DNA of 42,379 nucleotides from a virus. A program made the translations under genes and the position numbers. The stretch's first letter is position 1. Each line of letters starts with the position of its first letter. Positions 3,825 to 42,379 of the stretch are shown here, in pieces. The notes under the pieces were generated by a model. It was not told the origin of the DNA, made no database searches, and saw nothing but the letters and a program-made list of their open reading frames with translations. The stretch lies in UHGV virus genome UHGV-1834803; one strand, written 5' to 3'.

Positions 3825-4418
3825 TTACTGTTTGTTATAAACAAAACCAATATCTTTCTTGTGAGGCATATCTGCTGCGGAAAAAGCTGCGATCTTCGCG
3901 AGTCGATCACATATTTCATTTTCACGATGCCCGGCGTGGCCTTTAACCCACTTCCAGCGAACATTATGTCGACTTGCGGCCTCATCCAGACGCTTCCACA
4001 GATCAACATTCTTTACCGGTTTTTTGTCAGAAGTCATCCATCCATTGCGTTTCCACCATTTCATCCACTGTGTCATGCCGTTTTTCAGATACTGGCTATC
4101 AGAGTGCAAAATAACGTTGCATGGATATTTCAAACGCTCCAGCCCGATAAGTGCCCCCATCATCTCCATACGGTTATTGGTGGTGCTATGAAAACCATCT
4201 GAGAACTCGCGTTCCTCACCACGATACTGGAGAACTATACCGTAACCGCCCGGGCCACCCGGATTTTTAAGGCAAGAGCCATCACTGAAGATTTTCACGG
4301 TTTTAAGCTGGGGATTGAATTCTACGACAGGCGTTGTGGGATTGGTGCGGGGAGAATTTTTGTTTTTGTCTTTTTTGCGAGTTTTTGCTTGCGACCGGGC
4401 TGGTGTCTTCGACGTCAT
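3825..4418 (-). CDS. rnhA: ribonuclease HI with basic N-terminal extension
   Basis: [21 protein letters not shown]...[11 protein letters not shown]...HSDSQY...KPVKNVDLW...[12 protein letters not shown] closely matches E. coli RNase HI from memory. Confidence 0.85.
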
Positions 4419-5418: not shown

Positions 5419-6012
5419 CTAAGCAGCCTTCTTTGATGGTCTTTTTTTCCTGACCACATTCGCAGGATCATACCCTCCCAGACTTTTCATGACGTCCAAA
5501 GGGATCTTGCTTATAGAGTGCCCAGCGTCCTGACAGAATCCTCGAAAAACAACGAGCATACTGCCACCGGGGTTGATGTTTACTTCTACCTGACCCAAAT
5601 TGACGTCAGGCTCGACAAACGCTACGCGGCCACCAGACAGAATAATCGTCTCATTCGCATACTCTGTTGCACGCTCATACCACTTTGTATCGAGGGATTG
5701 AGGAATTAGCATCACTGTTGTAACTCCGCGAGCCTGCTCACGTATAGCAGCATCAATCCAGGGGGAGATTTTGGAGTAGGGTGGATTGAGGAAGGCAATT
5801 GTACCTGGCTGTCCCCATTCAGATTTCAAAGCATCACGCTCAATGCCTATGAAATTAGGCAGCTTTGCGTTGTCCTTGTTGCAGGCAACGTCAACATCAA
5901 ATGTCACTCCAAGATAACGTTGAATGGCAGAAAACAGCCAATCAGGTGTTCTCCAGAGGTCACGAAGAGAGTTGTCGCGCTTTCGCTGTTTGATTTTTTC
6001 GGCTGCAATCAT
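5419..6012 (-). CDS. DNA N6-adenine methyltransferase (phage Dam family)
   Basis: NPPY-type motif (FLNPPYS) and overall layout typical of small phage Dam-like MTases. Confidence 0.65.
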   Translation of the reverse strand: MIAAEKIKQRKRDNSLRDLWRTPDWLFSAIQRYLGVTFDVDVACNKDNAKLPNFIGIERDALKSEWGQPGTIAFLNPPYSKISPWIDAAIREQARGVTTVMLIPQSLDTKWYERATEYANETIILSGGRVAFVEPDVNLGQVEVNINPGGSMLVVFRGFCQDAGHSISKIPLDVMKSLGGYDPANVVRKKRPSKKAA

Positions 6013-8212: not shown

Positions 8213-8857
8213 CTAATGAACGGTCACTCGGCCACAGAACCGGTTTTCTATCTTTTCTACAGCGTTATCTAGCATTCTCATCACTGATCTGGCTCTTGCT
8301 TCAACCGTGCGATATCGGTTGGAAACGACGAAGGTTTGCAGATCCCCCCTTTGCGGATGCAGGTGAATTTTTGTCAGTTCCCCGCACATCAACGCATCAA
8401 TACGTGCGACATACAGACGGTCTAATGATGCTCGTTGTGATCGCAAGTAATCTCGCTCTGAGAGAGCGACTCCCGGGCGTAGGCCAGCAATGGCGTTAAA
8501 GTTTGAAATAGCAGTTTTGTGGCAAAACTTTTCGATATCGAGGGCTAACTCAATACATCGATCTTCATTGGTATGGCCGACCAAATCCAACGTGTAGGCC
8601 ATAACATCAGCAGGTGTGCGATCGATAACAAAGCCTTCAACACCACGCGTAAGTAGCTCTATATGCTTTGCTATTTCCATTTGAATCTGAAGCCGCTCAT
8701 ATAGAGGCATAGACTCACCTACTCGAACACCGAGTCGGCTCATCAAACTTCCGACACCAGCATCCACGTAAGGGATTCCGTAATGTTTGTCGATATATTT
8801 TGCCAGGGTTGTTTTCCCACTGCCCTGAGCACCAGTGATCCCAATCCGGTAATCCAT
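8213..8857 (-). CDS. P-loop NTPase, putative (deoxy)nucleotide kinase
   Basis: Walker A GITGAQGSGKTT near N-terminus; sits in a nucleotide-metabolism cluster. Confidence 0.5.
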   Translation of the reverse strand: MDYRIGITGAQGSGKTTLAKYIDKHYGIPYVDAGVGSLMSRLGVRVGESMPLYERLQIQMEIAKHIELLTRGVEGFVIDRTPADVMAYTLDLVGHTNEDRCIELALDIEKFCHKTAISNFNAIAGLRPGVALSERDYLRSQRASLDRLYVARIDALMCGELTKIHLHPQRGDLQTFVVSNRYRTVEARARSVMRMLDNAVEKIENRFCGRVTVH

Positions 8858-9333
8858 TACGACCTTCTGTATACGATCTGCGAAAAGCCAGGCTCTTCCT
8901 CGCTGGCTCGTTGGGTAAAAACTGTTTCAACAGGCACAAAGCCTAAATTACGCATCATGCTTGCCGGGAAGAATGCATCGGCGTTTGGCACATCAACGCC
9001 GATGTGGGAGAGCCAAATCTCTTCAACATGCGGCATGAATAGCGAGTAAATTTGTTCCCCGCCAATCACCCACACAGGCTCTGGTAATCGCAACACATCA
9101 TCCACACCAGCAGGGTAGAATCCATTTGGTACAAAGCCATGAGAGCGCGTCAAAACGAGGTTATGACGCTCTGGAAGAGGGCGTTTGAGACTTTCCATCG
9201 TTTTACGCCCCATAACGACAGTGGCGTTTTTGGTGAGTCTCTTAAATAGCTTCAGATCGGTAGAACAACGCCAGGGCAGTTCGTTCGCTATGCCGATCTC
9301 ATAGTTACGGCCAACAGCAGCTATCATCTTCAT
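8857..9333 (-). CDS. folA: dihydrofolate reductase
   Basis: MKMIAAVGRNYEIGIANELPW...VVMGRKTMESL...PERHNLVLTRS matches the DHFR fold signature. Confidence 0.8.
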   Translation of the reverse strand: MKMIAAVGRNYEIGIANELPWRCSTDLKLFKRLTKNATVVMGRKTMESLKRPLPERHNLVLTRSHGFVPNGFYPAGVDDVLRLPEPVWVIGGEQIYSLFMPHVEEIWLSHIGVDVPNADAFFPASMMRNLGFVPVETVFTQRASEEEPGFSQIVYRRS

Positions 9334-20401: not shown

Positions 20402-21046
20402 TTACAGCGCGTCAGTGGGCTTTTTACGCGCTGCGTTTATGCTTATGACGCCAGCTTTTGGACGTGGGTCAACAAGGTTAAGCTCTTCTTCGCTGTGGTA
20501 TTCGAGGTCGAACTCACGTTTTACATGTCTGATGTAGATTGCGGTGAGCAGGCTATCTTTGGTCAGAAAGTGTCCGTAGGATTTGCGGATCACTTCTTCT
20601 ACCTTCTCGATTTTCTCACCACCCATACAGAGATGATTAAACCGGCTGTGTTTCCGCAACATTTCGTCTACTGGGCCTGAGTAAACCTTGTCTACTTTCC
20701 CAAAACGGATGATTTTCCCTGTGTCTGCGGATACGAGGCAAATCAGCTTGTCTGGTGATAAACGATCTCGCCACGTCACACCTGAACGGAGTGTGTTGAA
20801 GTAGGGAGCATCCAATCCGATGATCGGTTTACGAAATGCGAGTAATGGAACGTACCTGATGCAACTGTTTAAATGAAAATTCACACCAGCCTTATCAAGT
20901 TTAATTCTGGTTTCGTAGATCGGGCACTTCGCCGCTATACCGCAGATGTCACAAAGCAACTTCTGCTTATTCAGGTTGGAATTTGATTCGATAGTGTAGG
21001 AGCCGTCTTCAAGACGACGAACCCAGCGCGTGCGTTTTAGATCCAT
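20402..21046 (-). CDS. hypothetical protein (214 aa)
   Basis: Intact ORF next to the origin region. Confidence 0.4.
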   Translation of the reverse strand: MDLKRTRWVRRLEDGSYTIESNSNLNKQKLLCDICGIAAKCPIYETRIKLDKAGVNFHLNSCIRYVPLLAFRKPIIGLDAPYFNTLRSGVTWRDRLSPDKLICLVSADTGKIIRFGKVDKVYSGPVDEMLRKHSRFNHLCMGGEKIEKVEEVIRKSYGHFLTKDSLLTAIYIRHVKREFDLEYHSEEELNLVDPRPKAGVISINAARKKPTDAL

Positions 21047-21133
21047 ATGTCATTTTTCTGTGATTGTTAGCCGAGGCAACGATAACCCACCAGGTGCGCC
21101 GAAGGTAGTAAATGCCTGTTTTAATTATTCACA

Positions 21134-21205
21134 TATCCACAGGATAGATCCTAATAAAGAGATCCATAGATAGATCCTTATATAGATCAAATAAGATCCC
21201 CGATC
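21134..21205. promoter_or_regulatory. DnaA-box-like site (TATCCACA) plus cluster of six GATC sites in 59 bp
   Basis: GATC at 21147, 21161, 21173, 21185, 21195, 21202, embedded in AGATCC repeats. Confidence 0.45.
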
Positions 21206-21245
21206 GCTGTAAGCCGCGCCACGACTGGTCTGAAGTCATGTTCAT

Positions 21246-21347
21246 GTATGCTGTCAGCGGTAATTGATAGTCTGTCAGCGGTTCACCGTATGCTGCCAAC
21301 TGTTTTTGGTATTCTGTCAGCGGCAAATCAAGTATGCTGTCAGCGGT
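21246..21347. repeat. upstream iteron cluster (about 5 copies of TATGCTGTCAGCGGT and variants)
   Basis: Direct repeats read at 21247, 21268, 21289, 21311, 21333. Confidence 0.6.
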
Positions 21348-21367
21348 TGAATGACAAAGGTGTCCAC

Positions 21368-22462
21368 ATGTCCACAAAAAATAAAAAAGGTAAAAATAAC
21401 AAAGAAGTAGAAGATAACATCGACAACTTTGAAGAAGGTTCCCTTGAATTGTACACAGGGGAACTTGTCCCTAATAGCAACAATACAGTCCAACCAATTG
21501 CGTTGATGCGACTGGGGTTGTTCGTCCCCACGCTTAAGGGAACAAAATACAGTAAACGTAACAAGCCAAATGAGATCGATGCTTCAAAGGAGCTTGTCCA
21601 GCTCGAAGTAGCCCGTTCTGAAGGCTATTCCGATATCAAGATAACCGGTCCTCGCCTGGACATGGATCATGATTTCAAAACGTGGGTGGGCGTTGTGCGT
21701 TCGCTGGCAGAATACGGCGAACCTAATGGTCGTGTCGAGTTAAGCATCACGAAATTTGCGAAGTTTTGTGGCTATCCATCGTCACAGATCCGCAAAACAC
21801 TCCGCGACCGGCTTACAAACAGTCTTTTGAAGATCATGCGTACAACTCTGTCTTTCCAGAGAACGTATGAAGAAAAGAACGTCGACGGCTCTAACAAGAT
21901 CTCGCTTCTGATGGTGCACCTCATCAATAGCGTGGACTACAACGAGCAGAAAGATACGGTGGTGTTCTATGCAGAACCGAAGCTGGCCGAACTATATCGC
22001 TTTGACCATAAGGTTCTTTTGCAGTTAAAGGTTATCAATAAGCTACCACGCAAAGAAACAGCACAGGCTCTGTACACCTTCATCGAAAGTCTTCCAACCA
22101 AGCCTGCGCCGGTATCGCTTGCTCGATTGCGTGCGCGACTCAATTTGAGTAGCAGGAATGTCAGCTCGCAGAATCAGACTATACGTAACGGCTTAAAAGC
22201 TCTCCAAGATTTGGGCTATCTCGAATACAGCGAGATTAAGCGTGGGCGGTCGATCTATATCCAGATTCACAGCCGCAATCCAAAACTCAAAGTCGCACCG
22301 CCAAAACCTGAAGACATCGAACCCAAAAAACCAGATGAGAAAGCCGGGGAAATTGATGCCAAACAGAACATTATCAATAAGATAACCGAACTTTCGCAGA
22401 ATTTGACGCCTGAAAATATCAAGATGATTGAGATCCTTTCCAATAGTCTCAAACTGCTTTGA
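21368..22462 (+). CDS. replication initiator protein (Rep, iteron-binding type)
   Basis: Only large plus-strand gene; flanked both sides by iterons; start taken at MSTKNKKGK (21368) rather than the track's 21248. Confidence 0.6.
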   Translation: MSTKNKKGKNNKEVEDNIDNFEEGSLELYTGELVPNSNNTVQPIALMRLGLFVPTLKGTKYSKRNKPNEIDASKELVQLEVARSEGYSDIKITGPRLDMDHDFKTWVGVVRSLAEYGEPNGRVELSITKFAKFCGYPSSQIRKTLRDRLTNSLLKIMRTTLSFQRTYEEKNVDGSNKISLLMVHLINSVDYNEQKDTVVFYAEPKLAELYRFDHKVLLQLKVINKLPRKETAQALYTFIESLPTKPAPVSLARLRARLNLSSRNVSSQNQTIRNGLKALQDLGYLEYSEIKRGRSIYIQIHSRNPKLKVAPPKPEDIEPKKPDEKAGEIDAKQNIINKITELSQNLTPENIKMIEILSNSLKLL

Positions 22463-22994
22463 TATGCTGTCAGCGGTGAAATGTATGCTATCAGCGGCTA
22501 TTTTTCTGAAAAGTATGCTGTGAACGGTTAAAGATATGCTACCAGCGGTATAGTGAGATAAACGTATGCTGTGAGCGGTAAATCATCTATCACCACTCAA
22601 TGCTCTTTTATACCTCCCCAGTGGTTACTAACCTCGAAGAGTGCATTCCATATAGGTTTGCGCTCACTAACATTCTATTCCCATTGCGCTGATTACTTGT
22701 AGTGAAAGGTATTTATTGCCTGCTGCTCCCTGATAGAACGTATGCTGTCAGCGGTGTTTTATTGAGGAATTTTTGTTTGGATATGCTATCAGCGGTAATT
22801 AATGGCATATGTCAGACCTTCGTATGCTGCCAGCGGTAATTTTGTTCTGGTTATACCCATACCGGTACACATTATTCATGCAATGTCTTAAGTATGCTGT
22901 CAGCGGTAAAAAATCGAGTAAAGTATGCTGTGAGCGGTGAGATAGACTCTCGATATGCTATCAGCGGCAGTTGATTGTGTATGCTGTCAGCGGT
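22463..22994. repeat. downstream iteron array (12 copies in two clusters)
   Basis: Copies at 22463, 22484, 22514, 22535, 22565, 22741, 22782, 22823, 22893, 22924, 22954, 22980; irregular spacing. Confidence 0.7.
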
Positions 22995-23041
22995 GACGAC
23001 TATGAAATATGACTGCGGAACGTGCCGCAGTCAGTTTGCAT

Positions 23042-23254
23042 TTAGTGTATTTTCTTCAACAGACCCCAAAGTGTTCCGGCTTTTGTAGTCAGTTTTCCTG
23101 TTTCTGGATCGTACATACGCCATTCACGCCGCTGGTGGACGATATACCCATCTTCACGTTCCAGACGCTCAAGAATGCCAGGCTGCTTGAAACCCTTAGC
23201 ACGCCAGTATCCGCTTGTTTTCTCGATTTCCAGACCTGCCAGTGTTAATGCCAT
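23042..23254 (-). CDS. hypothetical protein (70 aa)
   Basis: Intact ORF abutting the next gene. Confidence 0.35.
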   Translation of the reverse strand: MALTLAGLEIEKTSGYWRAKGFKQPGILERLEREDGYIVHQRREWRMYDPETGKLTTKAGTLWGLLKKIH

Positions 23255-23589
23255 TATCCAACCTCCTTGCAGTCATCGAAAAGGTAGCTTTGCTGAGAAG
23301 CGTGAACGCCATAGAAGCCCTTGTATTTGTTGTATACGAAGTGGTCTTCTCCGACGCCGGTTAATTTGCCATTACGATTTGTGAGATATGGGGATGACAA
23401 CACTCGATCGTCACGCACAACATAGAACTGGTCGCCGCTGTCTACGACCATCGCTCCATATGGTGCTTTTATGACGTCGGTAAGAGCGCCATTCTTAACG
23501 TCGGCTACAGACATTTCACACTGATAAACAGTGGTGTCGGCCACAACGATCGAAGAAAGGAACAACAGCGCGAATGGGATGGCCTTCAT
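23254..23589 (-). CDS. hypothetical secreted protein (111 aa)
   Basis: N-terminal signal-peptide-like segment MKAIPFALLFLSSIVVA. Confidence 0.45.
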   Translation of the reverse strand: MKAIPFALLFLSSIVVADTTVYQCEMSVADVKNGALTDVIKAPYGAMVVDSGDQFYVVRDDRVLSSPYLTNRNGKLTGVGEDHFVYNKYKGFYGVHASQQSYLFDDCKEVG

Positions 23590-24561: not shown

Positions 24562-24574
24562 ATTTTCTTAACCC

Positions 24575-24652: not shown

Positions 24653-25483
24653 TTATTTCACTGTAATGAAAGGAGTGTTAGCCCCTTGAGTCATGTACTG
24701 CGGTAACTGGCCATTCCATTTATTGATGGCTTCCAGCTCCATAACGTTCGGGTTTTGACGCAGAGCTTCACCGCGCAGACGAATGGCGTCGGCTTCTGCT
24801 TGCGCACGAGCACGGATAGCATCAGCTTCACCATTAGCCTGTTCACGTAGCATATTCGCCTCAGCTTTACGCTGTTCAACTTCCTGCTGACGTTGCAGAG
24901 TACGCTGGTTAGCCGTTACTTTGGCGTTGATAGATTCAATGACGGTTTTTGGGTAATCAGGCTTTCCAACCCATGACAGGCTCAGTACCTCAATACCAAC
25001 CGGAGACATCTCTTTCTGAATATCTTTCAGTGCGTTGTCCAGCAATTGTGCCTTACCACCGTCGATAAATGAGTCAGTGGTCATACGGCTGGCCAAACGG
25101 TTTAGAGAGTCGGCAATTTTCTGACGCAGATCTGATTCGGTGATATCGTCTACGCCTTTGCGATAGGTCTGGAACACCGTCGTTACCTTGTCACGATTAA
25201 CCAGATACGCAACGCCAATTTTGTGACCAATAGCAGTACCGTCACTCATCTGGAATGTGAACGGCTCGTCGTAGGTCTTCATTTGTTTGAAGGTCGGGAA
25301 TACGTAAAGTTCGGTGTTAAGACCTGTCCATTGGCGACCAACGCCAACCACTTCACCAATCCCTTTGTCTTCACCTAATTTGTTTACTTTGATGCCAACG
25401 TATCCAGGCTCCACGCGATCACAGCCAGTAAGACCCGTTGTGCAAATAGCCGCCAGAGCAACTGCAAGTAAACCTTTCTGCAT
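24653..25483 (-). CDS. SPFH/band-7 (stomatin/prohibitin-like) lipoprotein
   Basis: Lipobox LTGC after signal peptide; band-7-like core; charged Ala/Glu/Arg-rich coiled-coil tail. Confidence 0.65.
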   Translation of the reverse strand: MQKGLLAVALAAICTTGLTGCDRVEPGYVGIKVNKLGEDKGIGEVVGVGRQWTGLNTELYVFPTFKQMKTYDEPFTFQMSDGTAIGHKIGVAYLVNRDKVTTVFQTYRKGVDDITESDLRQKIADSLNRLASRMTTDSFIDGGKAQLLDNALKDIQKEMSPVGIEVLSLSWVGKPDYPKTVIESINAKVTANQRTLQRQQEVEQRKAEANMLREQANGEADAIRARAQAEADAIRLRGEALRQNPNVMELEAINKWNGQLPQYMTQGANTPFITVK

Positions 25484-25486
25484 TAC

Positions 25487-25687
25487 TTATTTCCCCTTTG
25501 CTTTGATTAATGAGTTGATAAACTTACGACCAGCAATAAGACCGATTACAGGAGCACCAAAACCAACGATAACTCCAAACATGACGGCTAAATCACTCTT
25601 GGTAGAAATCAGCGACGGAACCAGTAAACCGTAGATGAGAGCCACTGAAAGGCCTGTGGCCACTGCCAATAGATAGATTTTGATCAT
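25487..25687 (-). CDS. small membrane protein (66 aa)
   Basis: Two hydrophobic helices; 4 nt upstream of the SPFH gene, probably co-transcribed. Confidence 0.45.
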   Translation of the reverse strand: MIKIYLLAVATGLSVALIYGLLVPSLISTKSDLAVMFGVIVGFGAPVIGLIAGRKFINSLIKAKGK

Positions 25688-25749
25688 GTGTTTTCCTATG
25701 TGGTTGTTATGTGAAAATAATAAGTAAGTACTTATATATTTTCAAGAGA

Positions 25750-25774
25750 TAAAAAAGGCGTCCTGTGGACGCCT
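25750..25774 (-). terminator. intrinsic terminator (GGCGTCC-TGT-GGACGCC + T6 on minus strand)
   Basis: Same stem sequence as the 24611 terminator; follows the RecA-like gene. Confidence 0.55.
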
Positions 25775-25779
25775 TGTGT

Positions 25780-26853
25780 TTACTCTTCTACTGACTCGGT
25801 GGGGTTGTCTTTTGCTCTTCGGTCGTCGATTGCCTGCAAAGCCGCAATGATTTCAGCCAGTGGCTTCTCCCGATACATCTCGACGATCTGCGATTTGGTG
25901 TATTTCTTGTCACCAATTTCAACTCGCCCGCTGGCGTTCTTTGGCAGGTATCCTTCTTCCAGCATGTACTCGACGAGCGATTCGATAACGTCGAGGCCAC
26001 GAGTAGGATCGAAGTAGAATTTCCAGGTGCATTTGCCATACGGTGGTGCAACTTTGTTTTTGATGCATTCTGCGCCTACGTCCTGGCCGATCTTCTCTTT
26101 ACCATCCTTCATCACCGATGCACCAAGACGGATACGTACAGAAGCGTAGAACTTCGGTGAATCTCCACCTGGCGACGTAGTAGGGTCGCCAAACATTACA
26201 CCGATTTTTGTGCGAACCTGATTCAAGAAGATGATGCAGGCGTTGTATTTGCGTGCCCACAAAGCCAGAGTAGGGAAGTTCGCACTCGTCGCACGAGCCA
26301 GTGCCGTATTGTCGTTCATGTTTAGCTGATCTTTGTCTTTGGCAGTGCCTTCAGCCATCTTTTCGAACTTCTCGGCTTTGGAGTTCGGAACCATAGACGC
26401 AAGAGAGTCAGCCACGATACAGATAGGTGCTGATTCGGGGATAAGCTCTTCATCACGAACCAATTTAAGTATTGTGCCGATCAACTCTACAGAGTCTTCG
26501 AAGGTATCTGGCTGCTTGTATACCCACTGACCGTCATCCTCATCTGCGTTCAGGCCATTGGCTACAGCCAGGCCAACGTCAAAACTGTTTTCATGATCGA
26601 GGAATACCGCCAGACCATCTTGTTTCTGTGTGGAGATCATTGCTGCTGTTGCAAGGAACGTTTTCCCTGCACTTGGAGGACCGAATACTTCGACGATACG
26701 ACCACATGGGAAGCCGCCATCGTAACGACCAGAAATAGCTTTGTTTAACGGTGGAAAGCCTGTATCAATCCAATGAGTTACTTTCTGAATTTCGTCGTTG
26801 CTACCGATTTTCTTTTTCAGAGCAAGTGCCAGTGCGGATTTTCCTTTTGCCAT
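25780..26853 (-). CDS. RecA-like recombinase
   Basis: Walker A GPPSAGKT and RecA-like core layout. Confidence 0.8.
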   Translation of the reverse strand: MAKGKSALALALKKKIGSNDEIQKVTHWIDTGFPPLNKAISGRYDGGFPCGRIVEVFGPPSAGKTFLATAAMISTQKQDGLAVFLDHENSFDVGLAVANGLNADEDDGQWVYKQPDTFEDSVELIGTILKLVRDEELIPESAPICIVADSLASMVPNSKAEKFEKMAEGTAKDKDQLNMNDNTALARATSANFPTLALWARKYNACIIFLNQVRTKIGVMFGDPTTSPGGDSPKFYASVRIRLGASVMKDGKEKIGQDVGAECIKNKVAPPYGKCTWKFYFDPTRGLDVIESLVEYMLEEGYLPKNASGRVEIGDKKYTKSQIVEMYREKPLAEIIAALQAIDDRRAKDNPTESVEE

Positions 26854-26855
26854 GA

Positions 26856-27128
26856 TCAGGCTCCTTTTGTTTCGTTGATTCGTTTTAAAGCGGCGGATTC
26901 ATCGAATACAATCGCATCGTGGTTAAGGAGTCTGGATACACGAGCGAGGATTTTTACGACCTGCTCGCTGACTAATCCAAACTCGCGATCTGTCGCTTTC
27001 ATTCCGGCAGCGCCTAGAATTGACGGCAGTGCGATGACAGCGTACTCACCGTGATAAAAGACAATCTCTTTTGCCAGTTGGGCAGGGGTGGTTGTAGCGC
27101 CATTGATAATCGATTTAAGCATTAGCAA
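26856..27128 (-). CDS. hypothetical protein (90 aa)
   Basis: Intact ORF tightly spaced between the recombinase and exonuclease genes. Confidence 0.35.
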   Translation of the reverse strand: MLMLKSIINGATTTPAQLAKEIVFYHGEYAVIALPSILGAAGMKATDREFGLVSEQVVKILARVSRLLNHDAIVFDESAALKRINETKGA

Positions 27129-39646: not shown

Positions 39647-40909
39647 ATGCCTTTTTTAATTTTCATTATTATACTACTGCTCACCGTGATTTTTTGGGAT
39701 TGGGTTGTTTTAAATGGTCAAATTGTTGGAACATTGGCTACAGCATTTGCTTTTATAGCAACAGCATGGAATGCCTACGAAGCGAGAAAAAGTGCAAAAG
39801 CAGCTTTTTCAGCCCTTCAATTAACAACAGAATCATTGTTCGAAATGCGAAAGAGTGCATTTAAACAATGGTTTGATTCCTTATTAAATCAACATGATGA
39901 GCTATGTCTTCTTGCAAAACAAATTATCGATAAACGCAAAATTAATTTAAACAGCGATGAGTTACATAGACTATATTACCCATTGGTAAAACAGCATGAG
40001 GTAATACAGTATGTGAAGCATATTATTAATATTTTTGAGTATGTGGATAGTTCATTTTATATTGATGGGGAATGTCTAAAGGAAAAAAGAGCGTATGTGT
40101 CACAATTAATTTTCAAAATCCCACCTCAGATGAAGTTGATCATTGCTATCTTTGGATTAAAGATCGATTATTGTGAACATATTAATTCGGGAAAACTGTG
40201 TTGTTTATTAAATAAATATGATTTTTTCAATGATGAAATATTTTTTGATGATGCTTATTCAGATATGCCTTATCTGGATGCATTCATAAACCTTAGATTC
40301 AACAAAATATTCAAATCTCGAATGATAAATTATTTTGATAATATCATTAAAAGTTATTATGTTCCATCGGACGTTAAAAGGGACTGGATGTTTCGAGACC
40401 CAAAGCTCGTACCGTCGGTTCTTATGAATTATAAAACTCCTTGTTCTCCTATAATTAATGATTACTTTGAGAAGTTGCCTTTACATGTAAGAAACTACTT
40501 TGAGGAACTACTTAAAACCGCGAATGATAGAGTTACTCATTTTGACGTTTACATCCCACGCCTTATTGGTTGTTCAATCGTGCAACATTACGAAGATGTG
40601 CCTTCCGAAAAAAACAGGTTAAATGACAGGAATGATGTAATAGCTATGGCTGAAGATTACATCGAGAAAAGAAAATCTAATCAACTAGATTACATACTTG
40701 AAGATATATACTTCAAGAGTGACGAAGATATAATCCCAGGCCACCATTTGATTGTGGCATTTGATGACTATGAATTTAAATTATCACTCATTAAGATAAA
40801 TGAGAATAAAGATAGCGATAATCTTTTAAATCGAATTTATACTGAATCCAGTAGCATGGTTAAAGAATATAAGCGCGAAATATTAAAACTGGGCGACTAT
40901 GTAAAGTAA
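39647..40909 (+). CDS. AT-rich membrane-anchored protein of unknown function
   Basis: N-terminal hydrophobic helices then ~370-aa soluble domain; AT-rich, Asn/Lys/Ile/Tyr-rich composition unlike neighbours. Confidence 0.5.
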   Translation: MPFLIFIIILLLTVIFWDWVVLNGQIVGTLATAFAFIATAWNAYEARKSAKAAFSALQLTTESLFEMRKSAFKQWFDSLLNQHDELCLLAKQIIDKRKINLNSDELHRLYYPLVKQHEVIQYVKHIINIFEYVDSSFYIDGECLKEKRAYVSQLIFKIPPQMKLIIAIFGLKIDYCEHINSGKLCCLLNKYDFFNDEIFFDDAYSDMPYLDAFINLRFNKIFKSRMINYFDNIIKSYYVPSDVKRDWMFRDPKLVPSVLMNYKTPCSPIINDYFEKLPLHVRNYFEELLKTANDRVTHFDVYIPRLIGCSIVQHYEDVPSEKNRLNDRNDVIAMAEDYIEKRKSNQLDYILEDIYFKSDEDIIPGHHLIVAFDDYEFKLSLIKINENKDSDNLLNRIYTESSSMVKEYKREILKLGDYVK

Positions 40910-41101: not shown

Positions 41102-41188
41102 TGGCGGAGAGTAATGGAATCGAACCATCATCGTTTGCACAATGGGACGGTTTTCAAGACCGCTTGAGCACCATGCTCCCTACTCTCC
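41102..41188 (-). tRNA. tRNA-Ser (anticodon UGA), type II, encoded CCA
   Basis: Hand-folded: acceptor GGAGAGT/ACTCTCC, anticodon loop CTTGAAA, long variable arm, T-loop TTCGATT. Confidence 0.7.
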
Positions 41189-41287
41189 AGCTATTGTGAT
41201 GGTCGGTGCTGAACTCCGACACAGGGTTGTAGCAAGCCCCGCAAAGCGCGCACTACTGTAGTTGCGGCACATCAGCCTGTGCATTCA

Positions 41288-41367
41288 TCACAATGGTAAG
41301 ATCACTACCTTTCGACCAGTCATTGTGCACATGAACGACGATTAACCGTAATGATATTATCGTTGTG
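41288..41367 (-). ncRNA. long-stem hairpin element A (candidate small stable RNA)
   Basis: ~16-bp stem (CACAATGGTAAGATCA / TGATATTATCGTTGTG, with wobbles); paralogous to element B. Confidence 0.3.
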
Positions 41368-41417
41368 TTGTGAAGCCAGATGCTTATCTTCTGGTTGCTT
41401 CAAAGAGCTGCACTTCC

Positions 41418-41507
41418 TCACAACGGTAAGAGCACTGGTCTGACTCTATCGATTTACGGCCTTGTGGGTCAGTATCGCCGATTCGCCCAATGCTCTTACC
41501 TGTTGTG
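41418..41507 (-). ncRNA. long-stem hairpin element B (candidate small stable RNA), abutting the tRNA-Thr 3' end
   Basis: ~16-bp stem (CACAACGGTAAGAGCA / TGCTCTTACCTGTTGTG) around a ~55-nt interior. Confidence 0.3.
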
Positions 41508-41508
41508 T

Positions 41509-41584
41509 TGGTGCCGGTTAACGGACTTGAACCGCTGGCCATTCGCTTACAAAACGACTGCTCTACCAACTGAGCTAAACCGGC
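41509..41584 (-). tRNA. tRNA-Thr (anticodon UGU), encoded CCA
   Basis: Hand-folded 76-nt cloverleaf: acceptor GCCGGTT/AACCGGC, anticodon loop TTTGTAA, T-loop TTCAAGT. Confidence 0.65.
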
Positions 41585-41588
41585 AATT

Positions 41589-41675
41589 TGGTGGGGAGTG
41601 ATGGAGTCGAACCACCCGAGTCGCCATGACAGTAGATTTACAGTCTACACCGCTACCTCTACGGACTAACTCCCC
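41589..41675 (-). tRNA. tRNA-Tyr (anticodon GUA), type II, encoded CCA
   Basis: Acceptor GGGGAGT/ACTCCCC, anticodon stem-loop GTAGA-CTGTAAA-TCTAC, long variable arm. Confidence 0.75.
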
Positions 41676-41680
41676 TAAAT

Positions 41681-41755
41681 TGGCGATGGTGGGTGGATTC
41701 GAACCACCGACCAGTTGGTTAACAGCCAACTGCTCTACCGCTGAGCTACACCATC
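41681..41755 (-). tRNA. tRNA-Asn (anticodon GUU), encoded CCA
   Basis: Acceptor GATGGTG/CACCATC, anticodon stem-loop GTTGG-CTGTTAA-CCAAC, T-loop TTCGAAT. Confidence 0.75.
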
Positions 41756-42072
41756 AATTCAGCACTGCCAGTATTTATTACTCAACAGTGCCAATCGCGA
41801 CGGTTTAGTTTCTGCCAGGAAACGCACCGCTACTTGCACTTTTCGTTAGTGCCAGACGCTTTCGACTTCGCTCAATAGTAGAAGGGGGAACCGCAGAATT
41901 CGGAAAAAATCGTACGCTAAGCTAACGGTGTTCTCGTGACAGCTCTTTGACTAGGCTTTCTAAGGCCATTCTGATAGCCCTGACTTCCTGAAAAGCCATG
42001 GCTAAAATTTGTGCGGCTAAAAGGGATAACCGATGGTAAAGTAAGTTATCCCTGTCGAGATACTGAAAAGCG

Positions 42073-42379
42073 TTATCCTCGTTTTTCCCAAAACTGTTTT
42101 GCCAGTTCGCTCAGAGCGCTAGTTAACTGAGCGACAGATTTCGCACTTTGCAAATTATTCTGCCCGGTCTGTACATTGGTATCAGCAGCATCGCGTATAT
42201 TGATAATACTGCGGTTTATGTCTTCACTTACTGCTCCCTGCTGCTCGACCGCAGTCGCTATTTGCGCGTTCATGTCGGTAATTTCGTTAACGCGTTGGCC
42301 AATTCCATCAAGAGCTGTAGCTGCGGCACTGTTGCAAATAGTCGGTGGTGATAAACTTATCATCCCCTTTTGCTGATGG
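42073..42379 (-). CDS. partial ORF with MCP signalling-domain-like C-terminus (N-terminus beyond window)
   Basis: VNEITDMNAQIATAVEQQGAVSEDINRSIINIRDAADTN resembles the conserved C-terminal part of methyl-accepting chemotaxis proteins. Confidence 0.4.
   Translation of the reverse strand, partial: HQQKGMISLSPPTICNSAAATALDGIGQRVNEITDMNAQIATAVEQQGAVSEDINRSIINIRDAADTNVQTGQNNLQSAKSVAQLTSALSELAKQFWEKRG

Follow-up and report, generated by a model that had tools for sequence, protein, structure and literature searches.

An iteron replicon homologous to P1 oriR-repA-incA in viral DNA related to the pECOH89/p09EL50 phage-plasmids

We found that positions 21125-22994 of a viral DNA (UHGV-1834803; the whole 42,379-nucleotide stretch analysed is referred to below as the window) very probably form the replicon by which a phage-plasmid of the pECOH89/p09EL50 type, within the SSU5 supergroup, is maintained as a plasmid prophage. 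We read it as a homologue of the P1 oriR-repA-incA and RepFIB replicons that would work in the manner of P1, RepFIB and mini-F, and give this reading a probability of about 0.88. The segment has the anatomy of such a replicon and is homologous to them, and the replicon is distributed exclusively outside chromosomes.

Origin region

Read from left to right, the segment contains two tandem DnaA boxes, six GATC sites, a GC-rich spacer, five iterons, the rep gene and 12 more iterons. The 15-bp iteron TATGCTGTCAGCGGT was found 17 times at up to three mismatches, always on the plus strand and always within 21247-22994. The chance expectation is 1.0 and 100 shuffles reached four copies at most; this family is the dominant repeat of the whole 42 kb window. 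The initial annotation, made from the letters alone, had estimated about five copies upstream of rep and 12 downstream, and the search returned exactly this division.

The left end of the origin is marked by tandem DnaA boxes on the plus strand (21125..21141), TTATTCACA at 21125-21133 and ATATCCACA at 21133-21141, with one base common to both; a single DnaA-box-like site had been noted here before. TTATTCACA is one of only three exact matches to TTWTNCACA in the window and ATATCCACA has one mismatch. Both align with the annotated P1 DnaA site TTATCCACATTATCCACT and are kept in Klebsiella pJN2-26 and in three further related loci (L007, L008 and L010). They are followed by an AT-rich block (21142..21205, 66% AT), in which GATC occurs mostly within (A)GATCC heptamer-like repeats with a 12-bp period, GATAGATCCATA. 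Its six GATC sites (21147, 21161, 21173, 21185, 21195 and 21202) span 59 bp, as previously counted, and the cluster is unique in the window: other 60-bp stretches hold two GATC at most, and the Poisson probability is 2.6e-7 per position, or about 0.01 window-wide. P1 oriR has five annotated Dam sites with which the block aligns, and by analogy with P1 it may serve as the DNA-unwinding region and as a target of Dam and SeqA. The element also encodes an adenine methyltransferase (5419..6012, minus strand; Pfam Dam PF05869, 5.4e-38; annotated in p09EL50 as phage N-6-adenine-methyltransferase), which lies outside the replicon proper and might act in trans on the cluster; its GATC specificity is putative.

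Between the GATC block and the iterons lies a GC-rich spacer (21206..21246) containing GCCGCGCCACGACTGG. Its GCCGCGCCACG motif is shared without change by the window, Klebsiella pJN2-26 and P1, is present in L008 and has one change in L010. The five incC-like origin iterons (21247..21347, plus strand) start at 21247, 21268, 21289, 21310 and 21333, with a spacing of 21/21/21/23, roughly two turns of the helix, and lie as direct repeats just upstream of rep. The right end of the origin carries two plus-strand DnaA-box-like 9-mers, GTGTCCACA and ATGTCCACA (21360..21376), which overlap the rep ribosome-binding site and start codon. Each agrees with TTWTNCACA, as read from the sequence, at 7 of 9 positions, a weak match when taken alone; the corresponding TATCCACA spans the start codon in both pJN2-26 and L008, and P1 has TATCCACA to the right of incC. 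Two minus-strand ORFs in this region (21129-21377 and 21340-21564) were rejected as spurious, as they cross iterons and DnaA boxes and are unannotated in all related records.

Initiator protein

The rep gene (21368..22462, plus strand) encodes a protein of 364 aa, a predicted iteron-binding initiator belonging to the P1 RepA/RepFIB family (Rep_3, WH1-WH2), as assigned from Pfam, BLASTP and a structural model. The most likely start is the ATG at 21368, with AAGGTG 5 nt upstream, and many assemblies are rotated to begin at this codon; a longer reading of 404 aa begins at 21248, within iteron 1. Rep had been described as the only large plus-strand gene, which does not hold, since a 420-aa ORF with no Pfam match lies at 39647-40909. 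No sigma-70-like promoter was detected on the plus strand upstream of rep by a consensus scan at the scan threshold, and inspection by eye gave only weak candidates such as TTGATA-19-TATGCT at 21264-21294. The rep promoter is presumably embedded in the origin iterons (21247..21347). Since no promoter was detected, autoregulation is proposed by analogy only.

The earlier proposal that the gene product is a Rep-like plasmid initiator was borne out by an HMM search. The protein matched Pfam Rep3_N (WH1) at 3.9e-9 and 37.5 bits, above the curated cut-off of 22.4, while the match to Rep3_C (WH2) stayed under its cut-off (13 bits, E 0.13; cut-off 21.1). A BLASTP alignment of 278 aa with P1 RepA, reaching from residue 20 to residue 284 of the latter's 286, has 46% identity (E 3e-86), and tblastn gave matches to P1 and P7 RepA at about 1e-64. 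We collected 477 homologues, many of them named RepFIB or RepA, and Rep is about 50% identical to many of these. Sequence searches of NCBIfam and the PDB with Rep gave no match, so the homology is based on Pfam, on BLAST against P1 and on the fold search described below.

An AF2 model of Rep had a moderate overall pLDDT of 68.6, with values of about 72-91 in the core (residues 65-305) and below 50 for residues 1-45. The model contains two helix/strand modules and helices at 329-343 and 348-363. The N-terminal tail of about 30 aa is predicted to be disordered, and the additional C-terminal helical hairpin comprises about 55 aa. The best Foldseek matches were RctB domains 2-3 (E 2e-7), RepE in its DNA-bound and DNA-free forms, and a WH1 domain; they extended over 215-313 columns with probability 1.00 and E-values from 2e-7 to 3.5e-3, with low TM scores of 0.24-0.49 to the PDB matches. 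In this model Rep is a protein with two winged-helix domains (WH1 and WH2).

Relatives whose Rep is 85%, 78% or 61% identical all have five upstream iterons in the same register. Identity in the iteron columns was 92, 81 and 71%, respectively, against 54, 38 and 31% in the spacers, a contrast which at the sequence level is the signature of purifying selection on binding sites. The iteron itself drifts with Rep divergence, from TATGCTGTCAGCGGT to TATTCTGTAGGCGGT at 61% Rep identity and to AACCACTGTAGAGAGT in SSU5 (48%).

Iterons downstream of rep

The 12 downstream iterons, all on the plus strand, form a candidate incA-like array in two blocks. Block 1 (22463..22579) has five copies with a spacing of 21/30/21/30, the first directly after the TGA stop codon. 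After an iteron-free spacer of 161 bp (22580..22740), in which no Rfam family was matched, block 2 (22741..22994) has seven copies spaced 41/41/70/31/30/26, their number differing among relatives. The first downstream iteron also abuts the stop codon in P1 incA (copy 9), pJN2-26, PhiR41_1 and p09EL50. Against the 12 downstream copies here there are nine in PhiR41_1, which has lost three through an 87-bp deletion between iterons, eight or nine in Klebsiella relatives and at least four in a 34.7 kb plasmid. Sequence related to the 161-bp spacer sits after the last iteron in pJN2-26. We considered whether this spacer (22580-22740) holds a relic SSU5-type iteron, as would be left by in situ replicon replacement, and rejected the idea because the window contains no match at up to three mismatches. 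No structured RNA or antisense regulator was matched by Rfam in 20900-23300 at E up to 1. Between the array and the convergent minus-strand operon lies a GC-rich hairpin of nine pairs (23010..23033), terminator-like on both strands, which is likely to act as a terminator shielding the array against read-through transcription.

By analogy, the downstream array would serve in copy control and incompatibility. Its repeats have the sequence of the origin iterons, which implies that the same protein would bind both. For RepFIB, the downstream block is sufficient by itself to displace a resident FIB plasmid, which the upstream block does not do (PMC11983097). Alternatively, the array might function as a second origin or as a site for partition or pairing, or consist of drifting repeats kept by recombination. 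The differing copy number in close relatives (12, 9, 8 and at least 4), the uniformly direct orientation, unlike P1 incA, and the interruption by the 161-bp spacer would fit such a role, yet we consider it improbable. Besides the identity of the repeats with the origin iterons, the array is without DnaA boxes, a GATC cluster or an AT-rich block; its stop-abutting position is conserved from P1 to this element, the equivalent block has a controlling function in RepFIB and mini-F, and the spacings of about 21, 30 and 41 bp hold many copies on the same helical face.

Relation to P1, RepFIB, Klebsiella and SSU5 replicons

The initial annotation had likened the layout to P1/F-type origins, and this likeness extends to the DNA. 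P1 has the same order of parts as annotated for oriR-repA-incA: tandem DnaA boxes, GATC cluster, GCCGCGCCACG spacer, iterons, right DnaA-like boxes, initiator and downstream array. P1 oriR aligns with the present origin element by element, so that the resemblance reflects homology and not only analogy. The differences are in detail. P1 has five GATC sites against six here, and its five upstream iterons are spaced 21/21/21/22 compared with 21/21/21/23. The P1 iteron GATGTGTGCTGGAGGGAAA and TATGCTGTCAGCGGT are alike only in the T(A/G)TGCTG half. The nine copies of P1 incA are three direct and six inverted, whereas the 12 copies here are all direct and in two blocks, so looping geometry may differ. 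P1 RepA has 286 aa, compared with 364 aa for the present Rep, which has extra N- and C-terminal segments, and parAB follows the array in P1 but is not adjacent here. P1 plasmid replication requires DnaA as well as Dam, with incA acting to limit copy number (work of Abeles, Austin, Brendler and Chattoraj). P1 and this element are both temperate phages kept as low-copy plasmids, although P1 is a myovirus with an unrelated phage backbone; members of the SSU5 supercommunity are predicted Siphoviridae (PMC7969092).

In the RepFIB replicons of F, P307 and pO157, rep likewise lies between origin iterons upstream and controlling iterons downstream, with a DnaA site (PMC11983097). RepFIB has another iteron sequence, hence presumably a different incompatibility specificity, and the present replicon, in contrast, is apparently the only one of a phage genome of about 110 kb. 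A variant with 81% DNA identity is found in an F-like multireplicon plasmid.

The Klebsiella IncpKPHS1/pJN2-26 replicon is closer, with Rep 85% identical, the same iteron consensus, five upstream copies spaced 21/21/21/23, DnaA boxes and GATC cluster. There rep is also flanked by the same two minus-strand genes, of 645 bp upstream and 213 bp downstream; its downstream iterons number eight or nine against 12 here and are arranged differently.

The resemblance to SSU5/pHCM2-like elements suggested initially proved correct. SSU5, pHCM2 and pLF82 (Cyrano) have a replicon at the syntenic locus with the same flanking genes, and RepA of SSU5 and Cyrano is 48% identical to the present Rep. SSU5 follows the P1-like plan, with a DnaA box, GATC repeats and iterons on both sides of repA; it differs in its iteron, AACCACTGTAGAGAGT, in the duplication of its origin block and in having downstream iterons in both orientations. 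SSU5-type replicons and the present one are probably mutually compatible. In the literature pECOH89 and p09EL50 are described as SSU5/pHCM2-like phage-like plasmids and grouped with SSU5, pHCM2 and pLF82.

Distribution and extrachromosomal state

More than 100 plasmids of E. coli and Shigella, about 110 kb in size (p09EL50- and pECOH89-like), and the phages PhiR41_1 and CMS-2020a have the replicon at about 99% DNA identity. For pECOH89, p09EL50, PhiR41_1 and CMS-2020a the identity is 98.8-99.7% in the replicon DNA and 99.7-100% in Rep. Four E. coli plasmids, p09EL50 among them, have exactly the same pattern of 5 + 12 iterons. Beyond the replicon, p09EL50 is 97-98% identical over window positions 55-39149, with 2.1 kb extra at 24567 and divergence beyond 39150. 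In PLSDB, p09EL50 is typed as rep_cluster_488 (MOB-suite) with a single replicon, whose region is 99.2% identical to ours, and no second Rep gene is annotated in its corresponding 43 kb. The PlasmidFinder name IncFIB(H89-PhagePlasmid) was provisionally assigned from the identical RepA in pECOH89 and p09EL50 and from use of the label in the literature.

Since a check for an extrachromosomal replicon had been suggested, we made it on relatives. The replicon was present in 120 of 5,426 complete E. coli genomes, and all 185 places were on plasmids, with none on chromosomes. In published work p09EL50 ran on PFGE as a plasmid band at about 110 kb, and pECOH89 was isolated as plasmid DNA, with tail, coat and terminase genes reported. 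PhiR41_1 was deposited as a phage with MG1655 as host. Related SSU5-like elements have been induced and packaged; the one E. coli element tried was not. These relatives agree with the phage-plasmid lifestyle suggested at the outset, and from those that are 97-99% identical we infer a plasmid state for the window's own element. The 'integrase' of the window, previously counted in favour of that lifestyle, is more likely to be a Cre-like resolvase or cyclisation recombinase in an element that does not integrate than a sign of integration.

Only about 40% of the element lies within the window, namely its part for DNA metabolism and replication, and phage-type genes surround the replicon: nrdAB, thyA, a DHFR gene, the Dam methylase, a RecA-like gene, dnaE and an SbcCD-like pair. 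This setting raises the question of whether the module is the phage's lytic (vegetative) origin with its initiator, or has a dual role, rather than being a dedicated plasmid-maintenance replicon. The large block of phage-type genes would suit a lytic origin, as would the finding of neither another iteron-like repeat cluster nor a further candidate origin within the 42 kb; however, with the rest of the element lying outside the window, a lytic origin may sit elsewhere. The homologous P1 oriR/RepA and RepFIB are low-copy plasmid replicons, and the lytic origin of P1 is separate from its plasmid replicon. The same replicon type also occurs on non-phage plasmids, namely the F-like multireplicon plasmid and a Rosenbergiella plasmid, where it lies beside parAB, and runaway lytic replication calls for the reverse of a negative-control iteron array. 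We therefore regard a lytic origin as decidedly improbable and favour a plasmid-maintenance replicon.

It is highly improbable that the replicon has become an inactive relic in an element with another means of maintenance: F's own FIB replicon is weakly expressed and partly redundant (PMC11983097), and plasmid pCFSAN004176P_01 combines rep_cluster_488 with IncFIA (MOB-suite) and an annotated IncFII repA, but an intact Rep ORF is conserved at 98-100% in over 100 plasmids, the iterons are selectively conserved, and p09EL50 has this replicon as its only typed one. We had also considered pCFSAN004176P_01 (34.7 kb) as a natural mini-replicon proving sufficiency and set it aside because of its IncFIA and IncFII determinants.

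Discussion

The mechanism that we propose for this plasmid-maintenance replicon is built from P1, RepFIB and mini-F. Rep monomers, each a winged-helix pair, would bind the five phased origin iterons while host DnaA occupies the flanking boxes, and together they would open the adjacent AT-rich GATC region. This region would need Dam methylation to fire, and SeqA would probably sequester its hemimethylated form. Host DnaB and Pol III would then be loaded, giving theta replication at low copy number. Origin-bound Rep would repress its own promoter, and the 12 downstream iterons would titrate Rep and pair with the origin iterons in cis or in trans ('handcuffing'), thereby limiting copy number and causing incompatibility. 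In P1, RepA monomers are activated by chaperones (PMC5043065). Our literature searches found no experiment on autonomous replication, Rep-iteron binding or copy-number effect for this replicon.

A more speculative idea, which we think doubtful, is that the enlarged, two-block, all-direct array is a fast-evolving copy-number rheostat specific to this phage-plasmid lineage, altered by inter-iteron recombination, and that the lineage-specific C-terminal hairpin of Rep (about 329-363) might provide a regulatory contact that P1 RepA lacks. If so, prophage copy number would be reset whenever iterons are gained or lost, and with it gene dosage, stability or the lysis-lysogeny balance.

The replicon belongs to a common, already sequenced family of E. 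coli phage-plasmids of about 110 kb; it is not new, and it adds nothing conceptually new to replication biology. Its interest is practical. It would maintain widespread phage-plasmids of E. coli, Shigella and Klebsiella, some of which carry CTX-M-15 and other resistance genes. Co-residence becomes predictable, as the pECOH89 and pKPHS1 types share one iteron while the SSU5/pHCM2 and P1 types differ, and the downstream iteron block would be a logical tool for curing cassettes, as in RepFIB. A precise map also helps replicon typing and annotation, because public records place the Rep start in an iteron or call the iterons att sites. The published description of the pJN2-26 type reports four iterons downstream of repA only and no known Rep domain (PMC6735626), so that the origin proper was missed there.

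Organisation of the replicon and its likeness to P1

We searched the window for the 15-mer TATGCTGTCAGCGGT, allowing up to three mismatches. The 17 copies found are all on the plus strand and all within 21247-22994, against a mean of 1.0 and a maximum of 4 in shuffled sequence, and they form the dominant repeat family across the 42 kb window. Five lie 5' of rep (21247, 21268, 21289, 21310 and 21333; spacing 21/21/21/23 bp). The remaining 12 lie downstream, as the initial annotation had described, and are all in direct orientation. The first downstream block holds five (22463, 22484, 22514, 22535 and 22565; spacing 21/30/21/30 bp) and begins at the very next base after the rep stop codon; beyond a 161-bp gap (22580-22740), the second holds seven (22741, 22782, 22823, 22893, 22924, 22954 and 22980; spacing 41/41/70/31/30/26 bp). 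Because the core is nearly always preceded by a purine, the functional repeat may span 16-17 bp.

Six GATC sites, also noted initially, are clustered at 21147-21205 in a region of 66% AT. Elsewhere, any 60 bp of the window contain two at most, and the window-wide expectation of such a cluster is about 0.01 (Poisson). The DnaA-box-like site proposed earlier proved to be a tandem pair, TTATTCACA (21125-21133), one of three exact matches to TTWTNCACA in the window, and ATATCCACA (21133-21141). Two more TGTCCACA motifs at 21360-21376 overlap the rep start codon.

The suggested P1/F-type origin with a downstream array was borne out by comparison with the P1 record. Read in the sense of repA, P1 has two tandem DnaA boxes, five Dam sites, five incC iterons with PrepA inside them, repA and nine incA iterons; the order of parts in the window is the same. 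The incC spacing is 21/21/21/22 bp, and the first incA iteron likewise abuts the stop codon, although the downstream iterons of P1, unlike those of the window, are not all direct. The two origins can be aligned at the nucleotide level through GGATAGATCC, the (A)GATCC repeats and GATCCC(C/T)GATCG, and the spacer GCCGCGCCACG is identical in both, which argues for descent and not convergence. Like P1, the element has a Dam-family methylase gene of its own (5419-6012; Pfam Dam, 5e-38), whose product is a possible partner of the origin.

The Rep protein and its start

The HMM search placed Rep among initiators as predicted, with Pfam Rep3_N (WH1) above threshold and a weak match to the WH2 model; NCBIfam and PDB sequence searches gave no match. 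By BLASTP, Rep was 46% identical to P1 RepA over 278 residues (E 3e-86), nearly all of the P1 protein. In tblastn against phage records, identity was 48% to the RepA of SSU5 and Cyrano and 43.5% to that of P1 and P7. Many of the 477 homologues in a large protein collection are named RepFIB/RepA at about 50% identity. The AlphaFold model, for which 30 homologues were used, was reasonably confident for core residues 65-305, with the N-terminal 45 residues predicted to be disordered and two extra C-terminal helices. Its best PDB matches (RctB domains 2-3, RepE with iteron, operator or ssDNA, and a WH1 domain) were iteron-type initiators in every case.

Rep most plausibly starts at ATG 21368 (364 aa), with AAGGTG 5 nt upstream. 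The RefSeq version, seen in a related record (L001 8249-9463), is a 404-aa ORF from ATG 21248, inside iteron 1, and turns all five origin iterons into coding sequence (21248-21367). The 364-aa start fits the layout of P1, where repA also begins downstream of the iterons, and the annotation of PhiR41_1, which has the short form. Klebsiella and a relative with 61% Rep identity retain the equivalent ATG in the same context, AAGG...CCACATG, and 21368 is the rotation point of many assemblies.

Conservation and exchange among relatives

We found 5 + 12 iterons in p09EL50 and three other E. coli plasmids (Rep identity 98-100%), 5 + 9 in PhiR41_1 (99.7%), 5 + 8 in Klebsiella pJN2-26 (85%; consensus and upstream spacing identical) and 5 + 9 in Klebsiella vB_KpnS_p4727 (86%). 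A Rosenbergiella plasmid with rep beside parAB (78%) has the same iteron type, with five in register upstream and at least four downstream. In the 61% relative, which is metagenomic with an SSU5-like backbone, the five upstream copies keep their register and the iteron has drifted to TATTCTGTAGGCGGT. Five origin iterons are present throughout, and the downstream number varies (12, 9, 8, at least 4). In PhiR41_1 an 87-bp deletion has removed three iterons (3909-4075 of its record, window 22893-22994), apparently by recombination between those at 22893 and 22980. In in-register alignments of the window with relatives of 85%, 78% and 61% Rep identity, iteron columns were 92%, 81% and 71% identical and spacer columns 54%, 38% and 31%, the signature of selection acting on sites where protein binds.

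SSU5 is laid out in the same way at the syntenic locus, though with another iteron, AACCACTGTAGAGAGT; diverged cassettes of a single replicon family are therefore carried on the conserved phage backbone. This reading fits the report that plasmid functions are the variable part of phage-plasmids (PMC7969092). The SSU5 origin block (DnaA box, GATC repeats and iterons) is present upstream of RepA in two tandem copies about 375 bp apart (1780-2000 and 2155-2410 of its record; 80% identity over a 44-nt repeat at the block starts), and its downstream iterons lie in both orientations.

The same replicon type also occurs outside phage-plasmids. On a 115 kb Rosenbergiella contig the 78%-identical Rep has a divergent P1-type parAB as its neighbour, and a replicon of 81% DNA identity is found on the 34.7 kb F-like E. 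coli plasmid pCFSAN004176P_01, next to ccdAB and a gene annotated as IncFII repA. Both replicons indicate exchange between F-like plasmids and phage-plasmids.

Distribution of the replicon

More than 100 E. coli and Shigella plasmids of about 110 kb share about 99% identity with a 2.1 kb region holding the replicon, and three deposited phage genomes share 98.8-99.7%. The replicon was present in 120 of 5,426 complete E. coli genomes, with all 185 matching places on plasmid records and none on chromosomes; for these relatives, the extrachromosomal state proposed initially holds. p09EL50, for which a plasmid band near 110 kb has been reported (PMC3486847), types with this replicon alone (rep_cluster_488) and is 97-98% identical to window 55-39149, except for one 2.1 kb indel: three hypothetical genes present in p09EL50 (24888-26971) and absent at window 24567. 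Its RepA is identical to that of pECOH89, which was obtained by plasmid purification and has been called an SSU5/pHCM2-like phage-like plasmid (PMC3999498). The resemblance to SSU5/pHCM2 elements suggested initially is now verified through these plasmids, and the element is a member of that supergroup with a replicon allele other than that of SSU5. SSU5-like elements have been induced and packaged, but the sole E. coli element tested was not (PMC9600943).

Both the element and its typed replicon were already known, and the P1-like map is a modest gain in annotation rather than a discovery. The accessible literature describes the replicon poorly: the IncpKPHS1 paper lists four iterons downstream and recognises no Rep domain (PMC6735626). 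Public annotation errors include the Rep start within an iteron and, in pJN2-26 (MZ779062.1), iterons labelled attL/attR. We rejected these att sites (1378-1397 and 2648-2667), as both are the iteron TGTATGCTGTCAGCGGTAAA, found once in the origin and once in the downstream array.

Proposed mode of operation

Beyond the anatomy, homology and extrachromosomal distribution observed here, we infer the working of the replicon from P1, RepFIB and mini-F. Rep monomers, which in P1 are activated by chaperones (reviewed in PMC5043065), would bind the five phased iterons, and DnaA the flanking boxes. The AT-rich, GATC-bearing region would then open, with methylation required, and after firing the hemimethylated sites would be sequestered. 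Rep at the origin iterons would shut down its own promoter; no rep promoter was found on the plus strand by a consensus scan. The downstream array would titrate Rep and pair with the origin (handcuffing), giving low copy number and incompatibility. In the homologous RepFIB, a resident plasmid is displaced by the downstream block on its own but not by the upstream one (PMC11983097); the literature searched held no experiment on the present allele. A downstream array with a role other than control, a lytic origin and a relic replicon are each unlikely, because the same replicon type is found on non-phage plasmids, the downstream array lacks origin features, and Rep and the iterons are strongly conserved.

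Other features of the window

Rep had been taken for the only large plus-strand gene, which was incorrect: a 420-aa ORF lies at 39647-40909, in a region differing from p09EL50. It had no Pfam match; in matching plasmids, this stretch is annotated with a hypothetical protein and a glutaredoxin of the GrxA family.

A lox-like site at 39115-39147 (13-bp inverted arms AATGATTCCATAC and GTATGGAATCATT, 7-bp core ATAGTAG) adjoins a minus-strand tyrosine recombinase gene (37913-39016). The p09EL50 site has the same arms and another core, CTAAAGA, and the two elements cease to be homologous right after it, at about 39150. The arrangement suggests a site of resolution or cyclisation of the Cre/lox type that doubles as a limit of cargo exchange. 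Resolution or cyclisation, rather than chromosomal integration, is probably the task of the 'integrase' (Pfam Phage_integrase, 2.9e-10).

The last 500 bp or so (41886-42379), adjoining a gene annotated 'ester cyclase', share 99% identity with over 5,000 plasmid records from many genera; at this end, therefore, the window has left the phage-plasmid backbone for widespread mobile or accessory DNA. A minus-strand cluster at 41102-41755 comprises four tRNA genes (Ser-tga, Thr-tgt, Tyr-gta and Asn-gtt); just two, Thr and Asn, were reported for pECOH89 (PMC3999498). By annotation of its p09EL50 homologue, a minus-strand gene at 8857-9333 encodes dihydrofolate reductase; the trimethoprim-resistance alleles dfrA50 and dfrA51 were recently reported in related SSU5-like and Klebsiella phage-plasmids (PMC12217456).
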